Virus record (IMG/VR): IMGVR_UViG_3300042868_001656
Location: 1-32,658 of that record
Source of the DNA: a virus
Taxonomy: Duplodnaviria; Caudoviricetes
DNA length: 32,658 nt
Strand: one strand, 5' to 3'
The position numbers and the translations under genes are program-made. Position 1 is the stretch's first letter, and each line of letters starts with the position of its first letter. Of this stretch, positions 2,406 through 24,750 are shown piece by piece. Under the pieces are notes generated by a model. That model did not search any database. It was given only the letters and a program-made list of their open reading frames with translations, and had not been told where the DNA came from.

Positions 2406-2448
2406 GGTTCTCCTTAAGTGCAGGTCAGTCTAGTGAGACTGTCTGCGG

Positions 2449-2904
2449 TCACTTGGTTTGTTTGCGAATGTTGCCGATTATGTCGGCAGGTACTTCTCGA
2501 CCACGCAGGTCATAGAGGAAGGTGACGAATCCGATCTCGTCTACTTTCTCAACTTTGTTCTCCATGAATGCTGTGGCAAGTGCGTTGATTGGCCAGATGA
2601 CGAACCACGGTTCACTGTCTTCGGCAACTTCACCCCACCAACCATCCTGATTCGAGTGACCGTATTGCACGATGAACGCAGGGATCTTTGCCATGTTGCC
2701 GAGCTGTGCAAGTGTTCGTGCGCCGACATTGATTAGGTCCAGTACGGCGTGTTCGTGTTTGTAGTCGATGATTGCTTTCGGTACACACTTGTCGTATTCG
2801 ACCATGAGGAAGTCGATGTCCATTGCTGGTGTGTTGTAGCCCCAGGTGCGATGTCGGCCTGATAGCCATGCGTCTCGTTTGAAGTGTTGTTCATTGCTTG
2901 TCAT
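2449..2904 (-). CDS. Hypothetical protein, possible PD-(D/E)xK nuclease fold
   Basis: 'MDIDFLMVE...AIIDYKH' pattern; start moved to the ATG at 2904, which overlaps the upstream gene end. Confidence 0.6.
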   Translation of the reverse strand: MTSNEQHFKRDAWLSGRHRTWGYNTPAMDIDFLMVEYDKCVPKAIIDYKHEHAVLDLINVGARTLAQLGNMAKIPAFIVQYGHSNQDGWWGEVAEDSEPWFVIWPINALATAFMENKVEKVDEIGFVTFLYDLRGREVPADIIGNIRKQTK

Positions 2905-3130
2905 ACCAGTCCGTCCATATCTCTGAGGGATGTAGTCCGAGTCGGACTGCATATTTGTCTGCTTGCCATATGTTGAAGTTTGTTGGGTTGTTTCGCCATC
3001 GTGAGATGACGGTTCTGTTGACACCCAACAGTTCGCCGATGTGTTTCGCCGAAGTGCCAGGTGTCCACAGTTTCAATAGTTCCGATGCCGGATAGCAGAA
3101 GTATTTGACCGCCTGCTGTCTTGTGGTCAT
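2891..3130 (-). CDS. Helix-turn-helix (Cro/XRE-like) DNA-binding protein
   Basis: 'AKHIGELLGVNRTVISRWRN...ADKYAVRLGLHPSEIW'; ATGA overlap with the upstream stop. Confidence 0.8.
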   Translation of the reverse strand: MTTRQQAVKYFCYPASELLKLWTPGTSAKHIGELLGVNRTVISRWRNNPTNFNIWQADKYAVRLGLHPSEIWTDWYDKQ

Positions 3131-3435
3131 TGGATTTCGAAGTTTTCGTATGCGTCGTCGCCGATCAGGTCGCGCATGTATTCTTCGCTCTCTGTCAAGT
3201 CGTTGAACAGGATGCGGCGTTTCTCTTCTTGCCACACTGGTTCGAAGTCAATCTTTTCGGTGTTCTTGAATGTCACGATTGACTCTGGGTTGATGCCCGA
3301 AGATTCGATTGGTTCAAGGATTACTGCTTCGATGTTTGTTCCTGGGCTTGCCACGATGATGATGTCACGATCATCGCGTTCGTTGTAGTCGATGCGCGTT
3401 GTGCCGAACATCGTGTTGATGTATATCTGTTTCAT
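3127..3435 (-). CDS. Hypothetical protein
   Basis: Strong RBS AAGGAGG; coupled to the next gene. Confidence 0.75.
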   Translation of the reverse strand: MKQIYINTMFGTTRIDYNERDDRDIIIVASPGTNIEAVILEPIESSGINPESIVTFKNTEKIDFEPVWQEEKRRILFNDLTESEEYMRDLIGDDAYENFEIQ

Positions 3436-3489
3436 TGTTGCCTCCTTAGGCGTTGATTGGTTGATGTGTGGATAGTGCAGTTATCGGCA

Positions 3490-3804
3490 TCAGTCCTCCT
3501 GTTCTTCGTCTTGGTTGTATGGTTTGAAGTCGAACTTGAAGTTCGGGTCGCTGCCGGCGATGTAGTAGCCCATGGTTGGATGGTTCGGATTTCGGCGACG
3601 TGGTGCGCGTTTCGCTTGCGGTTTGCCAAGTGTCGCACCTGGGTATCTGACACCATTGCGCAATGTTTCATGGAATCGCAACGCATCAAACACACGATCC
3701 ATACCGCCGTGGATTAGTGCGTCAGCGAGCATGTCGCAGCATTGACGTTCTTTCTGCAATTCGTTTTGTATTTGGATGAGTAGTTGTTTTTCTTTGGCAT
3801 TCAT
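3490..3804 (-). CDS. Hypothetical protein
   Basis: RBS AGGAGG followed by CCTGCAC-ATG. Confidence 0.75.
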   Translation of the reverse strand: MNAKEKQLLIQIQNELQKERQCCDMLADALIHGGMDRVFDALRFHETLRNGVRYPGATLGKPQAKRAPRRRNPNHPTMGYYIAGSDPNFKFDFKPYNQDEEQED

Positions 3805-3822
3805 GTGCAGGCCTCCTATGAC

Positions 3823-4068
3823 CTAATCGTCTTCGAGTAACTGTCTTGCTATTCGAAGTTTCTCGGCAGCTCCCGCTGATTCGAGAAGACCGATAGTAGT
3901 AGATGTGACCTGCTCAGGCGGGCATATAGTGAAAAACTTTTGTTCGGTCGTCACATAGTTTTGGATCGTCGCAACCAGCACATAGGCGGTGCAAACATTG
4001 TCGGCATCTACTTGTGATTCGATGAAGTATTTGATGCGGTCATCAATCGGGTCTTCGCTCTCATTCAT
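3823..4068 (-). CDS. Hypothetical protein
   Basis: ORF packed within the operon; GAGGA upstream. Confidence 0.7.
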   Translation of the reverse strand: MNESEDPIDDRIKYFIESQVDADNVCTAYVLVATIQNYVTTEQKFFTICPPEQVTSTTIGLLESAGAAEKLRIARQLLEDD

Positions 4069-4150
4069 CGTCGTCCTCTAGTTTCTCGCCGCACACAGGC
4101 TTGCGTGGCAGGATGCGGTTCGGTAGGCAGGCGCAGAGTCGGGCTTCCAT
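4061..4150 (-). CDS. Small Cys-containing peptide (29 aa, MEARLCACLPNRILPRKPVCGEKLEDDDE), not in the ORF track
   Basis: TAATG overlap with the upstream stop; fills the gap exactly. Confidence 0.5.
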   Translation of the reverse strand: MEARLCACLPNRILPRKPVCGEKLEDDDE

Positions 4151-4467
4151 TATCGTTCCGCCACTGTGCGTGGGAATGGCAGGTCGTTGTATGCCTGGTT
4201 GAGTAGGCCGAGGTAGCCGATCGCATCGGCGAGTGTGTCGTGGTGGAGTCGGTTCTTTTCTAGGTTGGTGCGGAGTCGTGCCATCTTGACCGACACCATG
4301 AACAGGAGCGCGTCCGACATTGACATTCGGATGCCGGTTAGTCCTTCGAAGATTTGGATGACTTTGCTGTAGTCGTCTACGACATTGCCGTAGTCGTTGT
4401 TGCGTGGTCCTGTCACCAACTGGTGTGCTTCGAGCAGGATGTCTGCTCCGACTGATTCTGTTTTCAT
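4150..4467 (-). CDS. DUF6378-like phage protein
   Basis: 'ILLEAHQLVTGPRNNDYG...MVSVKMARL...HDTLADAIGY' pattern. Confidence 0.8.
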   Translation of the reverse strand: MKTESVGADILLEAHQLVTGPRNNDYGNVVDDYSKVIQIFEGLTGIRMSMSDALLFMVSVKMARLRTNLEKNRLHHDTLADAIGYLGLLNQAYNDLPFPRTVAER

Positions 4468-4652
4468 TGTGTCTCCTTGCAGATTTCGTATTTGGATTGG
4501 CTGAATGCGAGTAGCCGTCCGTTGGGTTCTATGCCGACCCAGGTTGGTGCATCTGGGTCACAGAGGCATCCTGCGATGCGGCGTGTGTCAAGTCGGACTT
4601 CACCGTCGCATAGTTGGCAGACGATGTATGTATCGAGTCCGATCGTGATCAC
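4464..4652 (-). CDS. Small zinc-ribbon protein
   Basis: CQLC...CLC; GTGA/ATGA overlaps at both ends. Confidence 0.7.
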   Translation of the reverse strand: MITIGLDTYIVCQLCDGEVRLDTRRIAGCLCDPDAPTWVGIEPNGRLLAFSQSKYEICKETQ

Positions 4653-4873
4653 AGTTCGATGCCTTGTTGGATGTGGACGCGGAGTCGGTCTAGTTGTCCG
4701 CCGAGTGATTTGATTCGGTCACGACACGCCTCCAATTCTTTGTGTAGCGACTCTGCTGCGTCAACTGCGTTGTCACGTTGTTCGGTGACACGTTCGAGTG
4801 CGACCGATAGTTCGGCGACACGGGTTTGCAGTTCGACTATCTCTTGGCTCATCGCGTATGTATCGCCGGTCAT
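4649..4873 (-). CDS. Coiled-coil hypothetical protein
   Basis: Heptad pattern; RBS AAGGAG; ATGA overlap. Confidence 0.75.
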   Translation of the reverse strand: MTGDTYAMSQEIVELQTRVAELSVALERVTEQRDNAVDAAESLHKELEACRDRIKSLGGQLDRLRVHIQQGIEL

Positions 4874-5001
4874 TTCTTGCTCCTTCTGTCCAGTTCTTGT
4901 TTAAGTGCTGCTATTACTTCGAAGAGCCGATCTTGTTCACCGACACCGACGAATTGTCTTTCAAGGAACGCGATTGCGTCTTGTATATCTTTCTTAGTCA
5001 T
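4870..5001 (-). CDS. Small hypothetical protein (43 aa, MTKKDIQDAIAFLERQFVGVGEQDRLFEVIAALKQELDRRSKK), not in the ORF track
   Basis: RBS GGAGG; stop overlaps the next start (ATGA). Confidence 0.75.
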   Translation of the reverse strand: MTKKDIQDAIAFLERQFVGVGEQDRLFEVIAALKQELDRRSKK

Positions 5002-5025
5002 CTCGACCTCCGCTGGTTGAAACAA

Positions 5026-5067
5026 GAACCTTACTCTGCGTCTCCCTAGTGACGCAAAGTAAGGTTC
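5026..5067 (-). terminator. Long stem-loop after the SSB gene (terminator or processing site)
   Basis: - strand GAACCTTACTTTGCGTC-ACTAGGGA-GACGCAGAGTAAGGTTC followed by TTGTTT. Confidence 0.65.
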
Positions 5068-5083
5068 AGGTCTTATTGCCTAT

Positions 5084-5482
5084 CTACCAACGGTCGTCGG
5101 TTGCAACCTTTTCTACCTTTGCCGCGAACAGCTTCGGTGCGTTGAACCCTGCCTTCTTTTCACCATCTGCCGAGTATTTGACCGAGATTTTGTTGCCGGT
5201 CAACTCTGTGACTGATGCTTGCTTCGCTGCTTCACGGATCGCGGTGATCATCGCACCACGCGCCCAAAGGTTTGCGTCGCCTTCTTTTTCTGTTTTGAGT
5301 GTGATGACATACACGAAACGTGGATCACCGTTCGGCCATGTCTTTGCGACACCTGCCGGATCACGATCCTCCAATTTTTTGACGTCTGTGACGATGCCCG
5401 AGTGGACATCGCCAATTTTCTCGAACTTCAAACTTGGCAGTTTGGGTCCGCCTCCTGCTAGGAGATCTTGTTCATCTGACAT
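5084..5482 (-). CDS. Probable single-stranded DNA-binding (OB-fold) protein of actinophage type
   Basis: 'PSLKFEKIGDVHSGIV...KTWPNGDPR..VITLKT...GFNAPKLFAA'; follows the exonuclease. Confidence 0.7.
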   Translation of the reverse strand: MSDEQDLLAGGGPKLPSLKFEKIGDVHSGIVTDVKKLEDRDPAGVAKTWPNGDPRFVYVITLKTEKEGDANLWARGAMITAIREAAKQASVTELTGNKISVKYSADGEKKAGFNAPKLFAAKVEKVATDDRW

Positions 5483-5918
5483 TGCTTACCTCATTTTCTT
5501 TGCTTGGGAATCCGAAGGAGTCCGTTGATATGTTCCACACGATGTCTTGTTCATCCCAACGTATTGCGCGACAGATAACAGCGAACTGTTTTGCACACGC
5601 CGCGTCGAGATGCCCTACGGCACCGCCTGCCGTTTTGAATAACACACCCTGAATCGAGTGGCAGAGACTCGTGATCAGGAGTTCGTCGCAGTTGTCGGAC
5701 ATGATGAGGTCAACTAGACCTCGTCCTATCTGGTATCTGCGATGCGATTTGAGTTGATCCAGTGAGATTGAGTGACCGTATTCGTTGCATTCGGTCGCGA
5801 TCTTCTTCAGCATTGCCCGCTGATGAGGACGAAGAGAGTCAAAGTCTGTTTGTAGTTGTAGGACACAGGTTCGGTCTACGCCTGTGTCGTATGTTCGGCC
5901 TTCGAATGTGTCGATCAT
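5472..5918 (-). CDS. Hypothetical protein
   Basis: ATGA overlap with the exonuclease stop. Confidence 0.75.
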   Translation of the reverse strand: MIDTFEGRTYDTGVDRTCVLQLQTDFDSLRPHQRAMLKKIATECNEYGHSISLDQLKSHRRYQIGRGLVDLIMSDNCDELLITSLCHSIQGVLFKTAGGAVGHLDAACAKQFAVICRAIRWDEQDIVWNISTDSFGFPSKENEVSNVR

Positions 5919-6964
5919 TTCTTCGCCTTCTTGCGTGTCAGTTTCAACGCTGGGTCAGTTTCAAAGAATTGGACATCGTTCTCGGCTTCAAGCAAGCCGA
6001 CGATCTTGATGAGTAGGTCTATCTGTTCGTTGTCGGCTTCACCGAGTTTGGGCACATCGACAGGCCAGAGTGACCGCAACATCTTCTGTGCCTTCTCTGG
6101 TAGATGTTTGATTCGTGCTGTCATCCAGTCACGGCGTTTGTCAAGGCTCGGTTCTAATTGAATGATCTTGGCTGACTCGAATCGTTCGTGTAGGTCGTTG
6201 CGTTTACGCCATGCGCGGACATCGAGCGCAAGTTTCAATCCTTCACGACCAGCGTTCAGATCAACCCAATAGAGGTCGCAGCGTCCTTCGCCTGCTGGTA
6301 GATGGAAGACGATTGCTTTGTCTTTTTCAATCATTGGCAGGCTTGTGCGCTCGGCTGTTTGGTAGTTGTAGATGTGTTGTGCGTCAGCGTAGGCAGCCAA
6401 CTGGATGGAGATTGCCCGCCACGAGTAGGTGAGATCGGTGCCAGTCTTCAAGTCGGCGATGTACATTCGGCCATTGACTTCTACGATGCGGTCTAGTGTG
6501 CCGGCATATTCGGATTCGTCGTTGATGACTACCGACTCGATGTAGTTCGGCATGATGTGAACACCGTACTTTTGCAAAGTTGAAACATAGGCGTCAAGGT
6601 CGGCTTGCAAGCCTGGGAGGATTGCTGGTTTCTTGCCCAAGTCGATTAGTTCGGTTAGTGAGTGAAGTGCTGTACCGAGGTTGGCGCGATGTGAACCGCC
6701 ACCTGCGGTGATTGCTTCTTCAGCAATTTTGTTAAGCGCGTTCTTGTCGTCAAGTTTTGTGGATGCCTGCGCAAGTAGGTCGGAGCGTTGGATGAGTCCT
6801 GTGATGACCATTCTGTTCGCCCACGATTTGAGTGCAGCTTCGTCGTCTGGTGCTTTCGCGATCGTGGTAACACGGGTGTAGCCGCGTTGTTTTCCGTCTG
6901 GTGTCGTGACGAGGTATCGACCCCACCGATCTTTCGGTGCTTCTTGTCGTGTTTCTTCAAGCAT
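5915..6964 (-). CDS. PD-(D/E)xK (RecB/Cas4-like) exonuclease
   Basis: 'YTRVTTI', 'GTALH', 'YAGTLDRI', 'IADLKTG', 'QLAAYA'. Confidence 0.9.
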   Translation of the reverse strand: MLEETRQEAPKDRWGRYLVTTPDGKQRGYTRVTTIAKAPDDEAALKSWANRMVITGLIQRSDLLAQASTKLDDKNALNKIAEEAITAGGGSHRANLGTALHSLTELIDLGKKPAILPGLQADLDAYVSTLQKYGVHIMPNYIESVVINDESEYAGTLDRIVEVNGRMYIADLKTGTDLTYSWRAISIQLAAYADAQHIYNYQTAERTSLPMIEKDKAIVFHLPAGEGRCDLYWVDLNAGREGLKLALDVRAWRKRNDLHERFESAKIIQLEPSLDKRRDWMTARIKHLPEKAQKMLRSLWPVDVPKLGEADNEQIDLLIKIVGLLEAENDVQFFETDPALKLTRKKAKK

Positions 6965-7006
6965 GTGCAGGCTCCTTGTTTTCTTGGGAATCTATGTCGG
7001 TATTGA

Positions 7007-7384
7007 CTATATCGGATCGGTGTTCGCTGAAGCGGGACCATCGGCAATGTTTTTGTAGGCGTTCCAAAGTTTCAGGAACTCGGTCATTGTCATAATCGCA
7101 TACCAGTTGTCCACTTCGACTGCACCTTGTTTCTTCACGGCACAAACACCGTGATTGGTGCCACGGTTCTTTTGCTCGACTTCTAGTTCTTTCAACCAGC
7201 AACCGATGTCGTGCCTGCGCTGGTCTTTGACCTCTACGGTGAGGTCGTCCACACCATCGATATCGCCGCGATCATCCGACCAGCCTGACCTTGATCGTTC
7301 AGCTCTTGGATGTCCGTGGTCTTGGAAGAACTTCGCCACCATCAATTCGGCGCGCGTACCTTTTCTTCTTTGTGGATTTGACAT
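7007..7384 (-). CDS. Holliday junction resolvase-like protein
   Basis: 'MSNPQRRKGTRAE...DRGDIDG...VEVKD'; start moved to the ATG at 7384. Confidence 0.8.
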   Translation of the reverse strand: MSNPQRRKGTRAELMVAKFFQDHGHPRAERSRSGWSDDRGDIDGVDDLTVEVKDQRRHDIGCWLKELEVEQKNRGTNHGVCAVKKQGAVEVDNWYAIMTMTEFLKLWNAYKNIADGPASANTDPI

Positions 7385-7673
7385 GAGTTCCTGCTCTCCT
7401 TCGTCGTCGGGTTTCGTTCCTTCGTTCAACTGTTGTCAGTCCGCCCCACACGCCGACACAATCGTTCGCTATCGCAAAGTCTAGACACTTTTGACGCACC
7501 ACGCAGATGTCGCAAAGTTTCTTCGCTTCACGCACCGCATGCAAATATCTTTCGTGGAAGAAGATGTCGGTGCCTTCGCCACGACAAGTTCCGTATTGTT
7601 GCCATTCTGGTCGGAGTAGTTCGAATACATTCTTGGACTCCGACCAGACGTCAACGATTCCGTAGTCGCTCAT
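7299..7673 (-). CDS. whiB: WhiB family Fe-S transcription factor
   Basis: 'WQQYGTC...IFF...AKKLCDICVVRQKCLDFA...GVWGGLT' with four Cys and a basic tail. Confidence 0.93.
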   Translation of the reverse strand: MSDYGIVDVWSESKNVFELLRPEWQQYGTCRGEGTDIFFHERYLHAVREAKKLCDICVVRQKCLDFAIANDCVGVWGGLTTVERRNETRRRRRAGTHVKSTKKKRYARRIDGGEVLPRPRTSKS

Positions 7674-7855
7674 TATTTGATTTCTTTAGTCCAGCGACGA
7701 ACATAAAACATTGCATAGAAGTTGACTAGTGCATAGATAAATATCTCTACGCCGTTTGCCGGACTTTCTTGCGGCAACCTTGGCATGAATAACAACATCA
7801 TCCATCCCACGATTATGAACGCCAATGTGAACATAATTTTCTCTTGCGGTTTCAT
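7673..7855 (-). CDS. Small membrane protein with two predicted TM segments
   Basis: Two hydrophobic segments; RBS AAGGAGG; TAATG overlap. Confidence 0.75.
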   Translation of the reverse strand: MKPQEKIMFTLAFIIVGWMMLLFMPRLPQESPANGVEIFIYALVNFYAMFYVRRWTKEIK

Positions 7856-7900
7856 TCTTCCTCCTTGGTTTAGTAACTCGCCTGTATCAGTTATAGGACA

Positions 7901-8473
7901 TTACGGCACAGATGTGGTGGATGCTTTGCAAACCCGCCAATTACAAGGATTCCATGGCTCGAACCCTGAGATCCGGTACAGCACCAGACCAGCCTTCAAG
8001 TTGGTGAGCGGGTCGAGTAGTGGTTCTTGAGTGCAGATGTTCATCTCTCGGCACACCGCAGCCCACTTGTTCCGAGACTTGTCATAGTTGACGCCGTTGA
8101 TCTGCAACAAGCCTGTATCGGAACGATGATTCCATTCGGACACACCTGTGATGTTGCAATCTTTGTCAACGATGTCTCCGCCTTTTCGGTTTGGGCAGGC
8201 TCCGCTTTCGCGTAGCACCAGTTCGGTCAATTTCGGTATCGCATGGTCAGGCCAGCCTGCCTGCTTGGCGAGTGACGGTAGCCAGGACACGTCTCCGTGG
8301 CGGAATCTAATGGGTTGGATTGGGTCAAGCCTGTCGGCTGGGTCGGGTCGCCAGAGTGGCTGTAATGAGTTTACAGCGTGACTGGTGTGGGCTGGTGCGG
8401 ATGCTGCTTGGGCTATGCCAAGGCTCATGGTTAGTGTGGCGAGTGTTGCCATGATTGCGGAGAGTATGCGCAT
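7901..8473 (-). CDS. Secreted lytic transglycosylase (SLT/lysozyme-like)
   Basis: Signal peptide; 'RESG', 'GLLQIN', 'LLDPLTNLKAG..LY...GFEPW'. Confidence 0.85.
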   Translation of the reverse strand: MRILSAIMATLATLTMSLGIAQAASAPAHTSHAVNSLQPLWRPDPADRLDPIQPIRFRHGDVSWLPSLAKQAGWPDHAIPKLTELVLRESGACPNRKGGDIVDKDCNITGVSEWNHRSDTGLLQINGVNYDKSRNKWAAVCREMNICTQEPLLDPLTNLKAGLVLYRISGFEPWNPCNWRVCKASTTSVP

Positions 8474-8499
8474 CGTGGTCCTTTCGATATGTGCAGGTC

Positions 8500-8565
8500 A
8501 ATAACGCAACCAGAAGGAGGTGACTGGTTGCGGTGCTACATCAACCCTAGTGGGGAGCGCACCTT
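8500..8565 (-). ncRNA. Candidate structured RNA or leader with an anti-SD loop
   Basis: Stem CGCAACCAG/CTGGTTGCG with loop TCACCTCCTT; second stem GGTGC...GCACC; -10-like TAAGGT at 8569-8574. Confidence 0.45.
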
Positions 8566-8601
8566 TCAACCTTAGCCGATGGCATCCGATTTTCGCTAGT
8601 T

Positions 8602-9122: not shown

Positions 9123-9123
9123 G

Positions 9124-10111: not shown

Positions 10112-11605
10112 CTAATTTTCTCTTCTGCGCAGGCTTGCTCCTACCGCCACAAGTGTATTTGATACGGCGACCAAAGTTCTACGCTCGCCAACAGGTATGG
10201 TCTGCCCGACCATCTGGAACGAGTCGAAGACGCCTGCGAACACATTGATTGTGTCTTGGAATGCTTTCTTGACTTTCGTTGGTGCTTCGTTCAGGACTGC
10301 GACAAGTTCGTCGGCTTGCTCGACTGTGATTTCTTCTACGACTAGTTCTTCGAATATCTGTTCGGCTTGGTCTTGGGTTATCGCCGCCAACACCTCAGGA
10401 GTTGACGCGATGCTGACCGCCTGGTCGGAAGATAGTGCGGTTGTCAAGATCTGCTCGATGGCTGCGACCACTTGTGCCGGTGACGCATCCTTCAATTCGT
10501 CCAGCACTTCGGCGACCTTCTCGTCTGTGATCGGTTGTTCAGGCTCGATGTCAAGTAGCGTGGTGGTTGATGAGATCTCTGTTGTTGGTGTTGTCGTTTG
10601 TGGGATATTTGTTTCTTGCGTCGGCTCTGATGTTGGCACACTTGTTTCGTCGGGCAGAATTAGAGGCGGAACAGAAGAAGTCAGATCAGTTGTATTGGGA
10701 AGAGGTAAGGAAGGATCGGTTGTAGATGTTTCGAGAATCGTGGTGGATGTTGTGGTTTCGGGTTCAGGCAAGGAAGTTGTGGTGGTTGTATCAGGAACTG
10801 ATTCGACGACTGGTGCGCTAGTCGTCGTGGTTTGAGGAGGAGTGTATGGTGCTTGCGTTGTTGACGGAGCTGGTGCAGTTGTTGTGGTCGGCGGTGTCGT
10901 GGTATTTGTCGTTGATGTGGTTGTGTCTAACTGAGTTGTGGTCGTGGTGCTGGGAAGGATTGTTGTAGATGTCGAAGTTGTCGAAGAAGAAGTTGAGGTC
11001 GTGGTCGTGGTTTCTTCAACTGTCGTTGATGTGGTTGGTGTACTTGATGTGGTTGATGGCATTGTTGTCGAGGTGACAGCAGCATGAGTTGTGAACGCTT
11101 CGTCCGGCACGATCGACCAGTCGCCGTTATCTATTTTCCATGCAAGCATTAGGCAGGTTCCTCCGCCGTTCTCGTACATGAAGAGTTGAAGCGGGACACT
11201 GCCAGACTCAATGTCAAGATTGCCTGACATGGTCCATGTGCAGCCTTGGTCATACCAAACACCGAACATCTCATCACCGATAGTTATCTCGCCACCGTCA
11301 TCGGACGCGATCATGAACTCGATGGTTTGATGTTCAGGAATAGTGATGTAGCCAGTCATGTGAACCATGAACAAGTCATAGGTGCAGTCTTCGAATAGTT
11401 CATAGTCATAGTTGCGGTTGATGTTGTTCTCTATCTCCGAACCACAAACAAGATATTCGGATGTCGACTGAACTGGCGGTATCTCGTCAATCGTGTAGTA
11501 GGTCGTGTTCAAACCTGGCTGAACTTCGGCTCGAACCGTAGTCGGCCAGAACGCGAACAGGATTGCTGGTAGCGGTATAAGCCACTTAGTTAGATGGCGA
11601 CCCAC
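10112..11605 (-). CDS. Secreted PA14-like domain protein with a mucin-like Ser/Thr/Pro stalk
   Basis: Signal peptide ending 'TVRA'; 'PGLNTTYY...GYITIPE...SDDGG' PA14-like motifs; long T/S/P tract; acidic helical C-terminal domain. Confidence 0.8.
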   Translation of the reverse strand: MGRHLTKWLIPLPAILFAFWPTTVRAEVQPGLNTTYYTIDEIPPVQSTSEYLVCGSEIENNINRNYDYELFEDCTYDLFMVHMTGYITIPEHQTIEFMIASDDGGEITIGDEMFGVWYDQGCTWTMSGNLDIESGSVPLQLFMYENGGGTCLMLAWKIDNGDWSIVPDEAFTTHAAVTSTTMPSTTSSTPTTSTTVEETTTTTSTSSSTTSTSTTILPSTTTTTQLDTTTSTTNTTTPPTTTTAPAPSTTQAPYTPPQTTTTSAPVVESVPDTTTTTSLPEPETTTSTTILETSTTDPSLPLPNTTDLTSSVPPLILPDETSVPTSEPTQETNIPQTTTPTTEISSTTTLLDIEPEQPITDEKVAEVLDELKDASPAQVVAAIEQILTTALSSDQAVSIASTPEVLAAITQDQAEQIFEELVVEEITVEQADELVAVLNEAPTKVKKAFQDTINVFAGVFDSFQMVGQTIPVGERRTLVAVSNTLVAVGASLRRREN

Positions 11606-16434: not shown

Positions 16435-17148
16435 TCAGTTAGCAGCCATCCGTTTACGCAGCTCAGCCCACTCACGTTGCATCTCTCTATGTATCTCTGA
16501 CTGTGTCATGCCTTCATACTCTGACAAATCGATTGGTGCATCCCACCACTTCGGGTCAAGAACACAACGCATCGGATTACCACGACGCGGCTGACGAGTC
16601 GAACGAATGCTTGGTGTAGAGAATGTGCGTGTCGGTGCAGCGATGTCTGTGATGGTTGGATCAAGGAACCGCCAACCTGAATGATGTGTGCGGAACTGCT
16701 GACCTGCCTCGTGCTGTGGCAGGTAAAAAATGCGAGCAGGGTCTTTGGTTGCTGGGTCGCCTTTAAGACGAAGACGCTCATGTGTCTCGTACCAAACTTC
16801 TTCCCAGTTCTGTACCGGCACAGCCTGCTCAAATGGGATGACAACGTGCCAGTGTGGATTGTCTTCACGATGCGACCAGGTTGTGTAGGCGAAGTGTATA
16901 TACGATCCGAGATCAGCTTGCTCGAATGCTTCACCGTCAAGGTCGGCAACCAATGCCCAGATGTGTGACACATTGCGATTGCCACGAGTTGTGTGTTCAC
17001 GGTATGTGACTGGCGAATATAACTTGCCGTCAGACTTCTGTTCGCGTTCTTGATGGTTGCCGAGCATGGTTGCAAACTCCATCCATGATGTGGCGATGGT
17101 CTTTGGGTAGATTGATTTGACCGATGGGAACCCGACGACTTCAAACAT
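16435..17148 (-). CDS. Stand-alone archaeo-eukaryotic primase (AEP)-like catalytic domain protein
   Basis: 'LVADLDG' (DxD), 'AYTTWSH', 'WHVVIPF', 'DPATKDPARIFYLP'; no helicase; ATG at 17148 overlaps the RHH gene end. Confidence 0.75.
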   Translation of the reverse strand: MFEVVGFPSVKSIYPKTIATSWMEFATMLGNHQEREQKSDGKLYSPVTYREHTTRGNRNVSHIWALVADLDGEAFEQADLGSYIHFAYTTWSHREDNPHWHVVIPFEQAVPVQNWEEVWYETHERLRLKGDPATKDPARIFYLPQHEAGQQFRTHHSGWRFLDPTITDIAAPTRTFSTPSIRSTRQPRRGNPMRCVLDPKWWDAPIDLSEYEGMTQSEIHREMQREWAELRKRMAAN

Positions 17149-17281
17149 TGTGCAGACCTGCCTCAATGTATCGGCGAAGTAGTTCGGACGCGGTCACATC
17201 TTCACGCTTGGCTTGACGCTTGATGAGTGTCTTGAGTTCTTGGTTGAGTCGAATGGTGATGGTTGGATATTGATTTGTCAT
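17141..17281 (-). CDS. Ribbon-helix-helix (CopG/Arc-like) regulator (46 aa, MTNQYPTITIRLNQELKTLIKRQAKREDVTASELLRRYIEAGLHNV), not in the ORF track
   Basis: Alternating beta strand 'TITIRL', helix A, 'TASELLRRYI' helix B; TGATG overlap. Confidence 0.85.
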   Translation of the reverse strand: MTNQYPTITIRLNQELKTLIKRQAKREDVTASELLRRYIEAGLHNV

Positions 17282-18107: not shown

Positions 18108-18525
18108 CACTGAATCCTTTGTGGTGGGTTGGATTTGACGCTCTTCCAGCGCAGATAGCCGAGCATCGTGTACAGCATTCTAGGTGATTCTTGTAGAAGG
18201 AGACTTGGCGCAATCGAAGTCTCGCAGGCGAGGTATGCGATCAGCCAGTGGGCTGATTGTTCTCCAAAGGGACGATCACCGCAGAATCGGTTCCAACCTC
18301 CACACTCTCGACTGTTTCAATCCATTCTTCAAACTTCATCGCGGTCTTCTTTGTGCGCTTCGTTGCATGCCAAGCCAACCAGGCAAGATCGGTGAGACGT
18401 AGTTCTGTTTGGAAGTTTGCGACCGAACGATTCTTCTCGCCTTCGAATGCGATGAAGTCGGCGAACTGTGCGGTCACTTTTGTGGTGACGTTGTCTAACG
18501 TCGTGACTTCTAGGTTGATTTTCAT
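18107..18525 (-). CDS. Tail assembly chaperone, -1 frameshifted long form (G-T type)
   Basis: Slippery C-CCT-TTG at 18265-18271; the -1 frame is open for 54 codons (FGEQSAHWLIAYLACETSIAPSLL...) to a TGA overlapping the next ATG. Confidence 0.8.
18241..18525 (-). CDS. Tail assembly chaperone (short form)
   Basis: Follows the tail tube gene; RBS AGGAGG. Confidence 0.8.
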   Translation of the reverse strand: MKINLEVTTLDNVTTKVTAQFADFIAFEGEKNRSVANFQTELRLTDLAWLAWHATKRTKKTAMKFEEWIETVESVEVGTDSAVIVPLENNQPTG

Positions 18526-18553: not shown

Positions 18554-18964
18554 TTATGCAACTGCTTTTGTGATTGTTCCGCTGATCGGCCAAGTTACAT
18601 CGGCTGTGTTCAATTCACCGACAGCACCGTTCACTGGCGACCATTCGGTTACGAGAACCGAGAAGGTGTAGTGAGGTGAAGCTGTGCCTGCTGCGGCTGT
18701 GCCTGCTGGTTTAATAACCATGGTCACGGCTGTCGAACCAACGAGTGGGTAGATCAAGCCTTCGACTGATGAGTATTCGTTGTGAAGTGAAAGTGTCACC
18801 GAGTTGTCGATCAAGCCTGCGACGCGAGTTACTGCACCACCACTGCCGAAGTTTGTTGTTGGTACCTCTGCTGCTGTAGTGCTTAGCGTAATTGCTGCCA
18901 CGTCACTGGAAATATCTGTGCCGTTGAGTGTGACTACTGAGTTTGTGAGAACTAACTTTGCCAT
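18554..18964 (-). CDS. Major tail (tube) protein
   Basis: 'NGTDISSDV...TTNFG...VAGL...GAVGELNTADVTWPISG'; position. Confidence 0.8.
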   Translation of the reverse strand: MAKLVLTNSVVTLNGTDISSDVAAITLSTTAAEVPTTNFGSGGAVTRVAGLIDNSVTLSLHNEYSSVEGLIYPLVGSTAVTMVIKPAGTAAAGTASPHYTFSVLVTEWSPVNGAVGELNTADVTWPISGTITKAVA

Positions 18965-18966
18965 GA

Positions 18967-19134
18967 TTATTTATCTCCTGCCTTGTCGGCGATAGAAGTT
19001 GATTTTTCTGCCACCAGAACAATGCGACCCGATGCCAGTAGAGAGTCTAGATGGTCAACTTCGTTGCCATCAATAGTGGCTGGATATTGTTTGTCTAGAA
19101 CCGTGAAGCCTTCGACCACCTGATATTTTGCCAT
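18967..19134 (-). CDS. Small virion-module protein (55 aa, MAKYQVVEGFTVL...LLASGRIVLV...), not in the ORF track
   Basis: Fills the gap between the tail terminator and tail tube genes. Confidence 0.7.
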   Translation of the reverse strand: MAKYQVVEGFTVLDKQYPATIDGNEVDHLDSLLASGRIVLVAEKSTSIADKAGDK

Positions 19135-19137
19135 AGG

Positions 19138-19548
19138 TTAAGCGTACACCACGACACGGAAATCGACTGTCAGATAGGTTGTGTCGTTCGCGTCAACGGT
19201 TGTGATGTTGGATGCTTCTTCGACGATCAATGTTTTGGCGTATCCGCCGAGAGTTGTGTCGGCTTCGATCGCGGCACGAATCCCACCGTCATAAGACAGA
19301 TATGTATCCATTAATGCTTGTGCGGTGCGTTCGGCTGCACGACCCACGATCACACTGACCGTGAAGACATGTGTGACCAAGCCTGCTCGCATCGCACCGT
19401 GATAGGTGATTGACTCCAAGGTCGGCCATGCGATACCGCCGACCGATGGGTTTACTTGATCGGGTTGTTGTGCATAGGCACGGAGGTTCGTGATTGTTTC
19501 AAGCCGAGTCTTGATGCCGTTCTTTAGTTCGGTGACTGTTGCGCTCAT
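19138..19548 (-). CDS. Tail terminator-like protein
   Basis: 'IRAAIEADTTLGG', C-terminal 'DFRVVVYA'; position. Confidence 0.7.
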   Translation of the reverse strand: MSATVTELKNGIKTRLETITNLRAYAQQPDQVNPSVGGIAWPTLESITYHGAMRAGLVTHVFTVSVIVGRAAERTAQALMDTYLSYDGGIRAAIEADTTLGGYAKTLIVEEASNITTVDANDTTYLTVDFRVVVYA

Positions 19549-20171
19549 GCAAACATCCGCATTCGGCGATATGGCTCGACAAGTTGTGCGACGTCTGGGT
19601 CAAGTGCGCGTGTCACTCGTATCGCACCCAAATCTCCGAAGCCGGCAACGCCGAGCGGTGAATCGTAACGCTTAAAGATTCTCGATGCCTGAATGATCAC
19701 CGCTTGCGTGATCGGTTCAGGTACAGATGGCCAACCGTAGATGGCGGTCAGTCTGACCAATGCTTCTTGACCGAAGTTTGTGTTCAATGTTGGGAACAGG
19801 TAATCGCCGACTGCGCGGATCCGTGTGTACGGAACAGTCAATCCGTCCAAGATTCCGTTCACTGGTTCTAGTTGATAATCGGATGGCGACCAGGTGACAT
19901 CGAAGTTGCCGTCTGCGTTTGTTTGACTTTGAAGTGTTAATGCTGTGCCTGCGATGTCATCTATTTCGCATACGAACGAATCACCTGCGGTGAACACTCG
20001 TGTCGTCGCCGAACTGTAAGCCCAGAACTGTCGGTTCGCATAGCCGTCAATTAGTCGACTGGCTGCACCGGCACAGTTGTCAATTAGATCGTCGTCTTGT
20101 GTGTCGGCGGTGCCGATACGAAGAGCAGCCTTGATCTGATTGCGTGTGGCATAGCCATTGGTGATTGCCAT
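19545..20171 (-). CDS. Head-tail connector (adaptor) protein
   Basis: 'YAT...IKAAL...DDDLI...AASRLID', 'YGWPSVPEPITQA', 'DPDVAQLVEPYRR'. Confidence 0.85.
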   Translation of the reverse strand: MAITNGYATRNQIKAALRIGTADTQDDDLIDNCAGAASRLIDGYANRQFWAYSSATTRVFTAGDSFVCEIDDIAGTALTLQSQTNADGNFDVTWSPSDYQLEPVNGILDGLTVPYTRIRAVGDYLFPTLNTNFGQEALVRLTAIYGWPSVPEPITQAVIIQASRIFKRYDSPLGVAGFGDLGAIRVTRALDPDVAQLVEPYRRMRMFA

Positions 20172-20182
20172 AGATTCCTATC

Positions 20183-20803
20183 CTACTCAACAACCAACAA
20201 CTCAAGTGATGGCTGAAGTCTGAAGAATCTTACTCCATACAACTCGCGCAACTTGTTGATGACGATCGGGAACCATTGACTCCAGCCTTCAGGGTTGATT
20301 GCTTTGCTGTCGCCGTACTTGCCGAAGTTACTTATCCCACCTATCGACCCGTTGTCAACGCCGACCAAATTGATTTGTGATGCACCCATGTAGCAGGCAA
20401 GGTGCATCGCAATATGTGCCGAAGTGCCGCCAACAACCAACACATCTGGGTCGGTTGGCCATCCGATGTCAGGTCGCCAGAATGGTGCGTGTGGTCGGAA
20501 GGTAACGTGATTACCTGAACCGACATGTGTTGCGGTCATGTCTGATGCTTCTAAGTCCATGTCTGGAGTGACGAATATGCGGTCAGGGTTTTCGTCAATT
20601 CGTTTGGCTGTAATCGGATTCGCTTTGGAATAATTTGACGCCGAATAGAAGTCGGCGATACCGAACCAGAATCCGACATCGTTGATCGACACAACAACCT
20701 TGTCATTGAAGAATTGTGGTGTCACCCAATCCATACTCGGACCAGAGCCACACACCCAGATCTCTTCACCTTTGTGACGGTCTTTCAAGTCGAGCAGAAT
20801 CAT
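20183..20803 (-). CDS. DUF115/MptE-like (Maf-type) putative sugar transferase
   Basis: 'IWVCGSGPSM', 'SIND', 'TSAHIAMHLACYMGASQINLVGVD'. Confidence 0.75.
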   Translation of the reverse strand: MILLDLKDRHKGEEIWVCGSGPSMDWVTPQFFNDKVVVSINDVGFWFGIADFYSASNYSKANPITAKRIDENPDRIFVTPDMDLEASDMTATHVGSGNHVTFRPHAPFWRPDIGWPTDPDVLVVGGTSAHIAMHLACYMGASQINLVGVDNGSIGGISNFGKYGDSKAINPEGWSQWFPIVINKLRELYGVRFFRLQPSLELLVVE

Positions 20804-21465
20804 TCAGCCAACTTCGGCGGCCAATCCTCACCAGGTATCACACGACCAGATTCCAACAGTCTACGAAAATTGAACACTTCTTGTTCGGCTTGTTCGTCTC
20901 TTTGTGCAGTCAGTGCATCATCGTGTCGAACCCAAGTCCACACACAACGCGAATCAAACGACGCTTCAACATTGTGTGACCGCATCTCGCACCAATGAAT
21001 CCAATCAACATACTTGTGGGAACGGTACGGAATCTTCAACCAGGTCTTGCGACGAATCACCGCAAGACCTGGCATACCGTTGTTTTGTTGATTGAGGAGA
21101 TTCTTATATTGCTCAGGTGTGCCGTAACACAATCCGCCATCCCACCGACCACGCACGTTCACCGCGTCACCTTGCAGAACAAGACCATCAAAGAAGTTCG
21201 GGTCCATAGTGTCGTCGACTGGAAGATGTGTACACCATTCCGCTGACGCTTCACGCACACCCACGTTCACACACGGCCAAATGCGATCATCCCAATATGG
21301 CACAACCTTCCACCAGGCAGGCACATCAACTCTTGCAGTCGTCACAAGAATCACCTCTTGCGGTTTGACCGTCAAGCCTTCAATCGAGGCAATGAACCCT
21401 TCACCGAACCGATCCCAATAGTTCTGCTCGAATGGTGAGATTATTGCTACCGGCGCCGATACCAC
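20800..21465 (-). CDS. Putative GT-A fold glycosyltransferase
   Basis: 'PQEVILV', 'NVGVREASAEWCTHLPVDD', 'YVDW'. Confidence 0.65.
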   Translation of the reverse strand: MVSAPVAIISPFEQNYWDRFGEGFIASIEGLTVKPQEVILVTTARVDVPAWWKVVPYWDDRIWPCVNVGVREASAEWCTHLPVDDTMDPNFFDGLVLQGDAVNVRGRWDGGLCYGTPEQYKNLLNQQNNGMPGLAVIRRKTWLKIPYRSHKYVDWIHWCEMRSHNVEASFDSRCVWTWVRHDDALTAQRDEQAEQEVFNFRRLLESGRVIPGEDWPPKLAE

Positions 21466-22181
21466 GACAACGGAGCCTTCCCTTCAGCAATCCACGGAAT
21501 CCACGAATCATCCATCTGCACCTCAATCAACTGTTCGCCGCGTATCGAGCGACCGACCCGATAGTTCTCAGCCATGAATCCTTCAGGGTCATCAACCATG
21601 AGTTCTTGGTGCGAAAACGAACGCATCTTGTTTGCAGCCCATTCAGGTCCACCCATCCAAGACACATGCCAACCTGACCGCAAGTTAGGTAGCCGTTCAC
21701 GGTTGGATCGTAGATGTTGCGCACCACCAGCGCGTTGACCGTAAGGACCTGCGACCATAGTGTGTTCATCCGATAGACGCCAATACGCGGACATCACCAG
21801 GCGTTTCATTAGATAGCCACGCCAACCTTCTTTCAGTATGTCGATGTCGGCTGGGTTCCAGATCTCGTCACAGTCGGCAACGGTCACGATGTCGTTGGCT
21901 TCTGGTGCGAACTCTTGCAACGCGACAAACAGATGGTTGCGTTGTGCGTGTTCAGCCGCCCAACCTAACTGATGCGGGTTCGGTTCAAATGTTTCGTAGT
22001 GTATTTTGTCGCGCCACTTGTAGAACCTGTCAAGATCAATGCCGTGTGGTTTGGGTTGACCCATGAAAGTCGTTGACGATTCGACAATGATCATCTTGTC
22101 TACGACATCGCCGATCTCTGACAGTCGACATTCGAGCATGTCGTGTTCTTGGTTGAATAGGATGCAGTCAAAGATCCTCAT
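21447..22181 (-). CDS. GT17-like glycosyltransferase (beta-1,4-GlcNAc transferase family)
   Basis: 'IFDCILFNQEHDMLECRL', 'IIVES..TFMG.PKP', 'EHAQRN', 'DCDEI', 'GWHVSW', 'KMRSFSHQE'. Confidence 0.85.
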   Translation of the reverse strand: MRIFDCILFNQEHDMLECRLSEIGDVVDKMIIVESSTTFMGQPKPHGIDLDRFYKWRDKIHYETFEPNPHQLGWAAEHAQRNHLFVALQEFAPEANDIVTVADCDEIWNPADIDILKEGWRGYLMKRLVMSAYWRLSDEHTMVAGPYGQRAGGAQHLRSNRERLPNLRSGWHVSWMGGPEWAANKMRSFSHQELMVDDPEGFMAENYRVGRSIRGEQLIEVQMDDSWIPWIAEGKAPLSWYRRR

Positions 22182-22747
22182 CGGTGTGTCTCGCCGATAA
22201 GCAATATGCGGTTGTCGTTCATCACAATCTTTGTGTCAATAGAACAATGTTTCTCAAACTCGGTCTGCAAAGTACTGATGTCAGGTATGTGCCAAGTCGT
22301 GTCGGCAGGAATATATTCAACAACTATCAGCCAGTCACATCTTGTTGATGCTTCTCGGATTACTTCTTGCCAGTTTTCTTGCATCACCAAAGTATGTGAC
22401 ATGACCGCGCAATCGTATTCACCTGACTTGGCTGCGGTCAGACCATCACCGACACGGAAGTCGACGCCAGGGTATGACGCTTTTGCTTTGCGTATTGCGG
22501 TCGGTGAGATGTCATAACCAACAACTTTGCGATTGCGTAACGCCATCAGATGCGTCTGTGTACCTTTACCACAACCGATATCAAGAATGGTATTGAACGA
22601 ATATGCACCCATTACGGTTGATAGCAGGCGGTATCCCATCGGTCGCACATCGGACTGATACCACGCATCAAACTCTTGAACATCTTCGGCTTGATACATC
22701 TCATCAAGTTTGAAACCGTCTTGCAAGTAGTCGTGATATTTGGCCAT
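22178..22747 (-). CDS. Class I SAM-dependent methyltransferase
   Basis: 'ILDIGCGKG', 'GYDISPTAI'; TGATG overlap. Confidence 0.9.
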   Translation of the reverse strand: MAKYHDYLQDGFKLDEMYQAEDVQEFDAWYQSDVRPMGYRLLSTVMGAYSFNTILDIGCGKGTQTHLMALRNRKVVGYDISPTAIRKAKASYPGVDFRVGDGLTAAKSGEYDCAVMSHTLVMQENWQEVIREASTRCDWLIVVEYIPADTTWHIPDISTLQTEFEKHCSIDTKIVMNDNRILLIGETHR

Positions 22748-23400
22748 CAATCCCAACTTAAATCAATACGCCGTTGCAAATCCCATTCACCAGCATCAAG
22801 ACGCACATTGCGCAACTTGAACAACTCAAGATTTGATTCGAAGGTTGCCTGATTCTTGGCGATGAATGTCGGGTTGGATTGCAATGTGGATGAGTTGTCG
22901 TGATAGACGATCGCCTGCGATCTGGTTATCTGTTTGCCCATCCGTAATGCGCGACGCTCATAGTCGTTGTCTTCGAAGTACGCCGGATGGAACGCTTCAC
23001 AAAACAAGCCGACATCTTTGACTACTTGTGAGCCGATCCACGCACAGCACCAACCTGGTTGACCTGCTAAATGAATCTCGTCTGTGTGGCATTCACGGTA
23101 GAACTTTTGAAGTTCGCCACGCTCAAAGAATGCGTCCGAGTTGAGAAGAATCCAACCCGATGCAAACGGTGTCATCTTGATACCAAGATTCCAAGATGTC
23201 GCCACACCGAGATTGCTCGGCATATCCAAGACATATCGGTTCTCAATGTTTGAGTTCTTCGGCAACGACAAACAATCCTTCTCGATCATTCCGCCGTTGT
23301 CGATAATGATCAGATGCTCGACCGCATAGTCGATTGTTCTGATACATCGTTCAAGTAGGTCATATCGGTTGAGTACGGGTATGACTATGACCGGCACCAT
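22747..23400 (-). CDS. GT2-family glycosyltransferase
   Basis: 'VIPVLNR', 'IIIDNG', 'NLGVATSWNLG', 'LLNSD', 'YFEDND'. Confidence 0.9.
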   Translation of the reverse strand: MVPVIVIPVLNRYDLLERCIRTIDYAVEHLIIIDNGGMIEKDCLSLPKNSNIENRYVLDMPSNLGVATSWNLGIKMTPFASGWILLNSDAFFERGELQKFYRECHTDEIHLAGQPGWCCAWIGSQVVKDVGLFCEAFHPAYFEDNDYERRALRMGKQITRSQAIVYHDNSSTLQSNPTFIAKNQATFESNLELFKLRNVRLDAGEWDLQRRIDLSWD

Positions 23401-24680
23401 GCAGACAGCTCCTTCATTGCAGGTTTCCAAAACTGCTCAAAAACCTTGTCGGCTCCGTACCCTAGGGCATGGGTGATTGCGTCCTGAGAACGGCTTCTAG
23501 GCGCGTTATAGGCCATCTTCAGGGCATTGACGATGTCAGGCACGTTCGGTGTGAAGAACCATGAAGCCTGCGCCGCATCCCACCACGGCTGACCATCAAC
23601 CGTCCAGCCGTCACCGACCAGTTCAGGTTGCGCAGTGAAGTTAGAAACAATCACCCGCGTCCCACAAGCCTGTGCCTCAATGACAGGAATGCCGAAACCT
23701 TCACCCATCGAGCAGGCAAGAAGAACATCGGACGCCGTATACATCGCAGCCATCACATTCTGAGGCAACGAATGACGATACGCATACTGATCAACAACCT
23801 TGTATCTGTCCTTCGACACACCGACCGCATCCAACAATGTCGGCAAACTAATCCCAGACATCGCACCATCAGGCTCCGTGTACAAATACAACACAGCATC
23901 AGGATGATCTTTGGCGAAGATAGAGAACGCAAGAATGTTCTCAGCCCAAGCCTTACGCGCAGGCTGACTACCTTTGTTCGTCGCAACCATAGACACAACG
24001 AACCTGTCCTCTTCCCAACCCATGAACTCTCGACCAGTCATCTTCCGACCATTGGCAAGCATCACAGAATCGGTTGGCTGGAACACAGGTTCAATTGCGT
24101 GAGGAACATACAAGTGTTCGACACCTACCGTCTCCAACATTCGTGAACCAAACTTTGACATCGCTATCGGACGCACATTGTCACGCTTACACCACCTCAA
24201 CACATCTGGCGGTGTCGGCTGATGATCGATAGGAACCCACGATGCGATGTTCTTCAAAGTTTTCAATGATTCAGATTTCAACACCCACACATCAAACAAA
24301 GTCATCAACAACGTCGGTGTCGACAGATCCTGATTCGCCCACTCCATAGTGTGCGCGACAACCACATCATCGCTGTATGTTGCGAGTCCTTGCGGATAGA
24401 TTTTGAAACCATTCCAAGTTGATGTCGCGCCTGACAGGCCGTACATCGCGTGGACTGCTACTTGGTGATCTTCTTTCGCGAGCCTTTGGATGACTTGCGC
24501 GGTTTGCTGTCCGTATCCGGTGGAAGCCCATGGAGCGTTGGAATACCAGACGACCCTGAGTCGGTCGGGATTGGTTGGTCGGACACTTCCAACGAGTGCG
24601 CTACGCCCGCTCGGAGCAAACGCTCCGCTAAGGCTCCTGGCATCTCCACTGGTATGCCTTTGACGATTACGGTCTGCCAC
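23385..24680 (-). CDS. GT4 (GT-B) glycosyltransferase
   Basis: 'SNAPWASTGYG', 'YTASDVLL..SMGEGFGIPVIEAQACG'; start uncertain (GTG 24680). Confidence 0.9.
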   Translation of the reverse strand: MADRNRQRHTSGDARSLSGAFAPSGRSALVGSVRPTNPDRLRVVWYSNAPWASTGYGQQTAQVIQRLAKEDHQVAVHAMYGLSGATSTWNGFKIYPQGLATYSDDVVVAHTMEWANQDLSTPTLLMTLFDVWVLKSESLKTLKNIASWVPIDHQPTPPDVLRWCKRDNVRPIAMSKFGSRMLETVGVEHLYVPHAIEPVFQPTDSVMLANGRKMTGREFMGWEEDRFVVSMVATNKGSQPARKAWAENILAFSIFAKDHPDAVLYLYTEPDGAMSGISLPTLLDAVGVSKDRYKVVDQYAYRHSLPQNVMAAMYTASDVLLACSMGEGFGIPVIEAQACGTRVIVSNFTAQPELVGDGWTVDGQPWWDAAQASWFFTPNVPDIVNALKMAYNAPRSRSQDAITHALGYGADKVFEQFWKPAMKELSAWCRS

Positions 24681-24682
24681 AT
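24458..24682 (-). CDS. Small protein (74 aa) overlapping the GT4 5' end in another frame
   Basis: AGGAGG RBS then ATG; 'MWQTVIVKGIPVEMPGALAERLLRAGVAH' looks like a folded mini-domain. Confidence 0.5.
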   Translation of the reverse strand: MWQTVIVKGIPVEMPGALAERLLRAGVAHSLEVSDQPIPTDSGSSGIPTLHGLPPDTDSKPRKSSKGSRKKITK

Positions 24683-24696
24683 GATCCTCCTAAGTT

Positions 24697-24750
24697 TAGT
24701 GCAGAAATGGAAAGTCCACGGCCAACCCTGCACGAAATGGCCGTGGACTT
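24697..24750 (-). ncRNA. 13-bp hairpin / H-type pseudoknot in the leader of the glycosyltransferase operon
   Basis: AAGTCCACGGCCA-loop(TTTCGTGCAGGGT)-TGGCCGTGGACTT; loop GTGCAG is complementary to downstream CTGCAC (24699-24704). Confidence 0.55.

Follow-up and report, generated by a model that had tools for sequence, protein, structure and literature searches.

A conserved hairpin after the capsid gene and complementary tags at gene starts change together in a family of tailed phages

Introduction

The CI RNA of phage P4 is a phage RNA of the c4 type, with loops that pair with short sites near ribosome-binding sites. The c4 RNA of phages P1 and P7 (RF01695), as described in PMC5320573, likewise exposes loops that pair near ribosome-binding sites, and loop and target change together between phages. 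Here we describe a hairpin that follows the major capsid gene in a stretch of viral DNA of 32,658 nucleotides (nt) (Caudoviricetes; IMG/VR record IMGVR_UViG_3300042868_001656, positions 1 to 32,658), the whole of which is called the window throughout. The hairpin loop is complementary to short sequences, here called tags, at the starts of several genes. A first-pass annotation, made from the letters alone, had proposed that the hairpin RNA could act on these starts as an antisense regulator of replication genes, by analogy with the RNAs of P1 and P4.

Other described systems share parts of this arrangement. Exposed bases in the terminator loop of OxyS pair with the start of the fhlA target (PMC11979758), and a motif of 7 nt in the 3' untranslated region (UTR) of Staphylococcus aureus icaR is described as pairing with the initiation region of the mRNA that carries it (PMC3868564), an arrangement to be compared with the loop and the capsid leader here. 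The 6C small RNA (sRNA) of mycobacteria, according to PMC6486639, is actinobacterial, loop-seeded, multi-target and apparently independent of a chaperone. In cluster K mycobacteriophages, an asymmetric repeat, the start-associated sequence (SAS), occurs in one orientation at gene starts and is accompanied by a lone reverse copy; its role is given as unknown in the accounts of PMC3203893, PMC11373665 and PMC12699233. The literature that we searched turned up no description of a post-capsid hairpin element. The loop sequences were absent from the six supplementary files of PMC10690425 that were searched, and its files 1, 2 and 4, which lay outside the search, may include the hairpin among candidate structures.

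Results

The window carries a hairpin that belongs to RNA of the coding strand and holds its loop fixed, complementary tags stand at gene starts, and loop and tags have changed jointly among relatives. The seed hairpin (24712..24750, minus strand) has a perfect stem of 13 base pairs (bp), 24750-24738 with 24724-24712, and a loop of 13 nt (24737-24725) that contains GUGCAGG(G). A pyrimidine-rich run follows, giving the capsid message a terminator-like end. The first-pass annotation had seen GTGCAGG displayed in this loop; its motif and hairpin coordinates were all correct, and the genes concerned lie on the minus strand. Folding of the region gave z = -3.85, with 0/200 shuffles as good. The terminator scanner takes loops of up to 8 nt and consequently did not list the hairpin.

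Relatives were sampled as 80 close capsid loci, 80 mid-range rows (a few common to both sets) and 80 distant loci, reaching down to about 40% capsid identity, within a phage family estimated from the widest capsid pattern at about 1,500 stored IMG/VR stretches. Clade 1 is that of the window, clade 2 has 64-73% capsid identity, and clade 3 has 40-56%, the range of the distant set. The hairpin was present in all 151 of the close and mid-range loci whose downstream DNA reached far enough. A GCAGG loop sits on an unbroken stem in 143 of these, the remaining 8 have one stem mismatch, and the arms take 23 different forms. The fixed loop was recovered in 63/80 distant loci as well. An exact-pattern scan for the clade-2 loop returned hairpins in 71 of 120 matches, the others being stemless, and the hairpins among the matches listed belong to the same phage family. 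Searches of Rfam gave no match in the window and none in 8 clade-2 and 8 clade-3 related loci at the gathering score.

The 79 distinct stems collected from 229 usable loci contain 1025 Watson-Crick, 104 G-U, 9 A-C and 13 other pairs. The large excess of G-U over A-C establishes that the element is an RNA read from the coding strand, which displays the complement of the tag. The 8 nt after these stems hold on average 4.3 T, the tail of the window being interrupted by C and A. A promoter-like match for the capsid transcript (TTGAAA-18-TACACT; 26108..26137, minus strand) precedes the leader of the HK97-type major capsid gene (24803..25999, minus strand). Given this box and the usual U-rich run after the stem, the hairpin likely ends the capsid transcript, which would bear it at the 3' end.

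Loops and tags differ between clades in matching ways. The clade-1 loop is GUGCAGG and its tags are CCTGCAC, CTGCAC and CCTGCGC. In clade 2 the loop is ACACGCAGGG (ACGCAGG), and the tag CCTGCG(T) stands at the start of the glycosyltransferase (GT) gene, in the capsid leader and, where seen, at the exonuclease. Most members of clade 3 carry the loop UUGUAGGUUG, and the first codons of their GT gene hold its complement; loop variants are mirrored base for base. Loop and tag pairs of this distant clade include GUAGGUUG/CAACCTAC, CUAGG/AACCTAG, GCAGG/AACCTGC and GUAGGUCA/TGACCTAC, and further UGGUUGAU/ATCAACC and GUGUGGGU/ACCCACGC. When 68 selected rows were placed on a quick capsid tree, at least 5 separate double changes of loop and tag emerged; GCAGG may be the older loop state.

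The enrichment of tags in start regions tracks the cognate loop. It was counted in 32 whole or partial records of related genomes with a simple, purpose-made gene caller. CTGCAC was found 53 times against 13.6 expected in clade 1, 14 against 11.2 in clade 2 and 0 against 1.4 in clade 3C, while CCTGCG reached 46 against 15.2 in clade 2, and AACCTAC 10 against 2.1 in clade 3C. Between loop and target, site types with at least 6/8 Watson-Crick pairs (a few of them picked out of register) have 35 G-U, 11 A-C and 33 other non-Watson-Crick pairs. The first-pass annotation had set joint variation of loop and upstream motifs in relatives beforehand as the test on which its proposal could fail; such co-variation was found repeatedly, at adjacent and at distant sites. 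Together with the G-U bias, seen both within stems and between loop and target, it supports the antisense RNA that had been proposed. A structured RNA with a conserved, exposed seed, and initiation-region sites that co-vary with this seed, are two marks of a trans-acting, loop-seeded antisense RNA, and both are present; two further marks, a stable RNA species with defined ends and an effect of pairing on target expression, are predicted.

The alternative offered at the time was that the motif binds a phage protein. More broadly, the tag could be a site for a phage or host protein, either an RNA operator or a DNA site of the stoperator or SAS kind, with the reverse copy in the hairpin as an extra site or decoy. 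Start-associated repeats in one orientation are known from cluster K mycobacteriophages (PMC3203893), CCTGCG occurs in tandem copies in clade 2, an altered protein specificity would likewise shift all sites at once, and a terminator loop is reported to be able to act without pairing (PMC11979758). However, the stem pairs (104 G-U against 9 A-C) show that the hairpin RNA presents the complement and not the tag. Furthermore, single-base loop changes are exactly mirrored at the targets in several lineages, G-U exceeds A-C at these targets, and tags decay where the loop is lost. The G-U bias thus favours RNA pairing, and we consider a protein site quite improbable.

Joint change extends to a gene that is not next to the hairpin. 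The gene after that for the major tail protein (18241..18525, minus strand) is taken from its position to be a tail assembly chaperone, and its start, kilobases away from the hairpin, is a target in clades 2 and 3 and not in the clade of the window. The complement is present in 68/68 rows of these two clades (31/31 in clade 2; 37/37 loop-bearing rows in clade 3). In all 31 clade-2 rows CCTGCG lies against the Shine-Dalgarno sequence (SD). The 37 clade-3 rows divide into GUAGG (22, of which 4 are GUAGGUCA/TGACCTAC), CUAGG/AACCTAG (4), GCAGG/AACCTGC (3), GUGGG (5, a G-U wobble) and UGGUUG (3). The tag is decayed in 6/7 loop-less clade-3 rows, and CTGC[AG]C occurs at this start in 0/27 cases in the window's clade. 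Since the clade-3 site encodes I-N-L, codon choice was checked against loop match. Where the loop matches, the Asn codon is AAC in 31 cases, AAT in none and replaced by GAC in 4 (compensated), with 2 not parsed; in clade 1, where the loop does not match, AAC was found 15 times and AAT 13 times (2 not parsed). Note that the gap after the 94-amino-acid (aa) gene (18110-18241, minus strand) is open in a different frame, as it would be if a frameshift extended the tail chaperone.

In the window itself, CCTGCAC has four copies on the coding strand (2418, 3805, 6965 and 8491), every one of them at most 50 nt upstream of a start, and these are the starts of the primase-helicase, the 104-aa gene, the exonuclease and the transglycosylase, exactly as first annotated. 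CTGCAC has 18 coding-strand copies, 7 of them upstream of starts by the same measure. CCTGCAC is the top 7-mer in the 52 upstream regions, with a binomial p of 2.4e-5 that is not significant over the 16,384 possible 7-mers; moreover, some 7-mer appeared in 4/52 random windows in 1951/2000 trials. None of 3000 dinucleotide shuffles reached 4 copies of CCTGCAC, and none of 3000 reached 7 of CTGCAC. The enrichment over shuffled controls that had been called for was thus obtained, and it was lost on correction for all 7-mers. The single window alone is only suggestive; its statistics are about what chance gives after correction, and the case therefore rests on conservation in relatives.

These weak statistics would suit an ordinary terminator whose motif matches reflect chance or codon constraint, as would the I-N-L coding of the clade-3 tag and the persistence of AACCTAG in clade 1 without a matching loop. 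Such an account must contend with a loop held fixed amid stem turnover, with synonymous target changes that follow the loop, and with SD spacers whose tag is conserved down to 50-67% protein identity. The double changes have largely refuted it already, and we find it barely credible.

Conservation site by site was counted among distinct relatives, and all targets given here lie on the minus strand. The tag makes up the whole SD-ATG spacer of the exonuclease (6965..6971), where it is kept in 20/21 relatives and the 21st has CCTGCGT with a matching loop, and of the 104-aa gene of unknown function (3805..3811; 23/23). The target of the AEP primase-like gene (17150..17155) stands directly before the ATG at 17148 in 20/22 relatives, the other 2 having TTGCAC. 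The transglycosylase target (8491..8497; 17/17) is in the leader of an SLT-like gene (7901-8473), SLT-like being a family lead. This leader also holds a second hairpin (8505-8532, minus strand) with co-varying stems and a loop, TCACCTCCTT, complementary to an SD. Some records of clades 1 and 2 have it in a C-rich form, and it is possibly a second riboregulator or a cis switch.

The GT target (24699..24704) precedes an SD common to the GT gene (GTG 24680) and an overlapping 74-aa open reading frame (ORF; ATG 24682). This ORF (24458-24682, minus strand; MWQTVIVKG...) overlaps the GT N-terminal extension in another frame, and both frames and starts are kept in 11/12 of the clade-1 and clade-2 loci translated. 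The capsid leader has the wobble form CCTGCGC (26031..26037), which had been overlooked; it is kept in 34/37, reads CCTGCGT in clade 2, and lies about 30 nt before the AUG, outside the SD. Two tandem small hairpins occupy the same leader (26040-26105, minus strand), both with a GAGC loop in clade 2 and with a different repeated unit in clade 1, and look like a separate protein-binding operator.

For the primase-helicase, the upstream target before the SD (2418..2424) is found in close relatives only (8/20), and CTGCAC in codons 6-8 (2384..2389), in fixed synonymous codons, is found in 19/20. A possible target, CCTGCGC before a 63-aa gene (10127..10133; 17/19), is inside the end of the upstream coding frame and may be constrained by protein. 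The tag was absent upstream of nine other genes tested among distinct relatives. Of the starts to which CTGCAC had been assigned at first, those of the AEP gene and of GT (kept in clade 1) held, and that of the 3435 gene (3475..3480) was rejected as a target, being kept in 2/10 relatives and probably due to chance.

Further hairpins lie near these elements. A 17-bp hairpin at 5026-5067 precedes a small gene, and its counterpart loops in relatives G006 and G007 contain CCCTGCG, complementary to their own post-capsid loop and a possible kissing partner of it. A small hairpin upstream of the seed hairpin (24761..24778, minus strand) has a GNRA loop, GCAA, which varies to GCGA, GUGA and GAAA in relatives, and shows G-U variants. 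It is overlapped by a promoter-like sequence, ATGACA-18-TAGGAT (24752..24781, minus strand), a consensus match only, which could yield a separate short RNA or the GT transcript. The promoter-like matches found number 2, with 1.0 expected.

How the hairpin RNA might arise was considered across the clades. A TANNNT box precedes the stem in 5/5 clade-1, 13/22 clade-2 and 4/41 clade-3 contexts, and on the last count a promoter of its own was rejected as a general feature of the hairpin. C occurs at -1/-2 in 28/41 clade-3 contexts, compatible with cutting by RNase E, described in PMC10641625 as cutting before C. Neither promoter box nor cleavage signal is general across clades. One metatranscriptome contig, X13, stops just 3' of the stem and has a loose end rich in A, an isolated case of no clear meaning.

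Pairing could occur only in cis on long late transcripts, as a pseudoknot at the GT start, an icaR-like 3'-5' contact with the capsid leader, and long-range tail-chaperone contacts on read-through RNA. The commonest partners (GT, capsid leader and tail chaperone) do lie in the late block on one strand, and the loop forms a 10-bp inverted repeat with the adjacent site. However, of the 53 loop-bearing clade-3 loci with GT next, 41 of which have a site of at least 6 Watson-Crick pairs, 51 have a -10-like box that parts hairpin and ATG, suggesting a leaderless GT message without the hairpin, and a linker of 5-7 nt over a 13-bp stem would be sterically tight. Ten further loop-bearing clade-3 loci have no adjacent site (9 with another gene next, in one of them, L416, a likely GT that the test missed), and in several of these the tail-chaperone site is intact. 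In clade 1, the tags of the exonuclease, the 104-aa gene and the primase-helicase, on early genes, are 18-22 kb from the hairpin and behind promoter-like boxes of their own. Leaderless GT boxes, loci without an adjacent site and far early-gene tags together favour action in trans, and pairing in cis only is unlikely.

The window covers the greater part of the genome of a small tailed phage. Almost every gene lies on the minus strand, in the order terminase, portal, protease, HK97 capsid, GT block, head-tail and tail genes, WhiB, exonuclease and primase-helicase. No integrase or repressor was found among 52 window proteins or, by eye, among the extra ORFs of the complete relative G016. Near the left end (360-570) is a cluster of nested inverted repeats (ACGCCGTCACG units), also seen in relative G003, which is possibly an origin or packaging region. 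That the host is an actinobacterium is suggested by the WhiB gene, by a hairpin-bearing contig in a metagenome-assembled genome (MAG) and by the closest cultured relative. The contig, from a MAG titled Acidimicrobiales bacterium, has a capsid 94% identical and the same hairpin, the MAG assignment being perhaps a binning effect. The only cultured relative found, the Pontimonas phage phiPsal1 (44.7% capsid identity), has a plain terminator, lacks the post-capsid loop, and shows no enriched start motifs besides the SD. Pairing of the tag with the 3' end of host 16S rRNA was also considered; the idea is unnecessary given co-variation with the phage loop. The rRNA tail pattern had no match in the Acidimicrobiales MAG.

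Discussion

The post-capsid hairpin is a genuine RNA element, conserved among relatives, and the natural compensatory changes at its distant targets are unusually clear. From the sequence comparisons we judge it probable that the hairpin forms the 3' terminus of the capsid message, or belongs to a short RNA cleaved or initiated from it, and that the loop pairs in trans with tags of 6-10 nt at ribosome-binding regions of further phage mRNAs and would lower the translation of these. As capsid transcription rises, the hairpin RNA would accumulate late, and a stable hairpin would be left either by the capsid message itself or by a piece of it that cleavage or an overlapping promoter sets free. Pairing seeded by the G-rich loop would then cover the SD, its spacer to the AUG or the first codons and block initiation. 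GT and tail chaperone, needed in smaller amounts, would be capped, and the capsid would feed back on itself; in the window's clade, replication genes would also be throttled at the switch to assembly.

That the effect is repression we infer from the position of the sites only. Pairing in trans could instead raise expression or stability by opening target structure or protecting 5' ends. Target bases are often predicted to be locally paired, the capsid-leader site is outside the SD, and the tail chaperone is a late need, all of which would suit activation. Several tags, however, occupy the SD-AUG spacer or leaderless first codons, where a duplex would be in the path of the ribosome, and activation appears highly improbable.

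Several observations count against repression in trans by the hairpin loop, in addition to the direction of effect, the local pairing of targets and the corrected statistics of the window. The window loop is predicted to be partly closed, and its duplexes of 7-8 bp can be equalled in random windows, in 1-4% of them at the six best sites and in 20% at AEP and GT. In 17/80 distant loci, phiPsal1 included, no such loop is present, so it is dispensable there. Locus L070 combines a clade-2 loop with the clade-1 GT site CTGCAC (5 bp), and CCCGCAC in 11 rows makes an A-C mismatch to the loop. The GT-start match lay beyond the 5th percentile in 0/4 cases for loop type E, 0/8 for type F and 9/38 for type A. 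Genomes inside one clade share kinship, so that pooled counts are not independent, and the metatranscriptome matches are assembled contigs, a form without RNA ends, strand or level.

The targets shared by the wider family are late genes, namely those for glycosyltransferase, tail assembly chaperone and capsid. Replication-gene targets, central to the first proposal, belong mainly to the window's clade and look like a lineage-specific gain. In this clade the tail chaperone seems to have been lost from the targets, with genes for replication and the cell wall added to them, and the idea of late shut-off would fit this lineage only. Going further, we tentatively suggest that in a lytic phage the 3' hairpin of the capsid message may be a master antisense regulator coupled to dose, so that a rise in capsid mRNA would reduce translation of the tail chaperone, the glycosyltransferases, the capsid and, here, replication enzymes, with a seed that drifts and a regulon rewired between lineages, a design that may also explain start-associated repeats of cultured actinophages, the SAS of cluster K among them. 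Proteins and promoters are the usual explanation for timing in phages and for the stoichiometry of their subunits. If true, a structural-gene terminator serving as multi-target riboregulator would provide compact, RNA-only feedback in a very abundant phage family, and the natural series of seeds supplies ready-made allele-specific tests.

Comparison with known systems

The analogy with P1 c4 extends to loops that pair near ribosome-binding sites and stops at family membership: besides the lack of Rfam matches, the c4 covariance model (RF01695), searched with E up to 5, matched nothing in the window. The c4 RNA is cleaved by RNase P and has three stems; it binds its targets through two loops, a' and b', and acts in one immunity operon of temperate phages. 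In contrast, the window element has one conserved seed loop at the end of the capsid gene and several scattered targets. Its place after the capsid gene sets it outside the immunity-region class of c4. OxyS is a stand-alone host sRNA, whereas the hairpin here stands at the end of a phage gene that encodes a protein, and its targets, several in number, are those of the phage. The icaR message is described as one self-acting mRNA in PMC3868564, whereas the tags here are mostly on other genes. The 6C sRNA is a host RNA with C-rich loops and has no sequence or Rfam likeness to the element.

The SAS of cluster K differs in sequence and is a 13-bp consensus that includes the SD, whereas the tag of the window is a 6-8-mer beside the SD or in codons. 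In phage Anaya, SAS matches number 16 forward and 1 reverse, and the reverse copy folds into a hairpin loop. It is part of a multi-hairpin intergenic element (L353 48780-48960; record 59779-59959) that is conserved across 150 records of mycobacteriophages. In 5/9 cluster K regions examined the reverse SAS makes up one of its loops, which is not so in Yuna, SirPhilip, Keshu and Pixie. The parallel is a lead only; if it holds for cluster K1, the role of the SAS repeats, open since 2011, would become testable in a cultured system, where a lone reverse copy in a hairpin loop again accompanies one-orientation repeats at gene starts.

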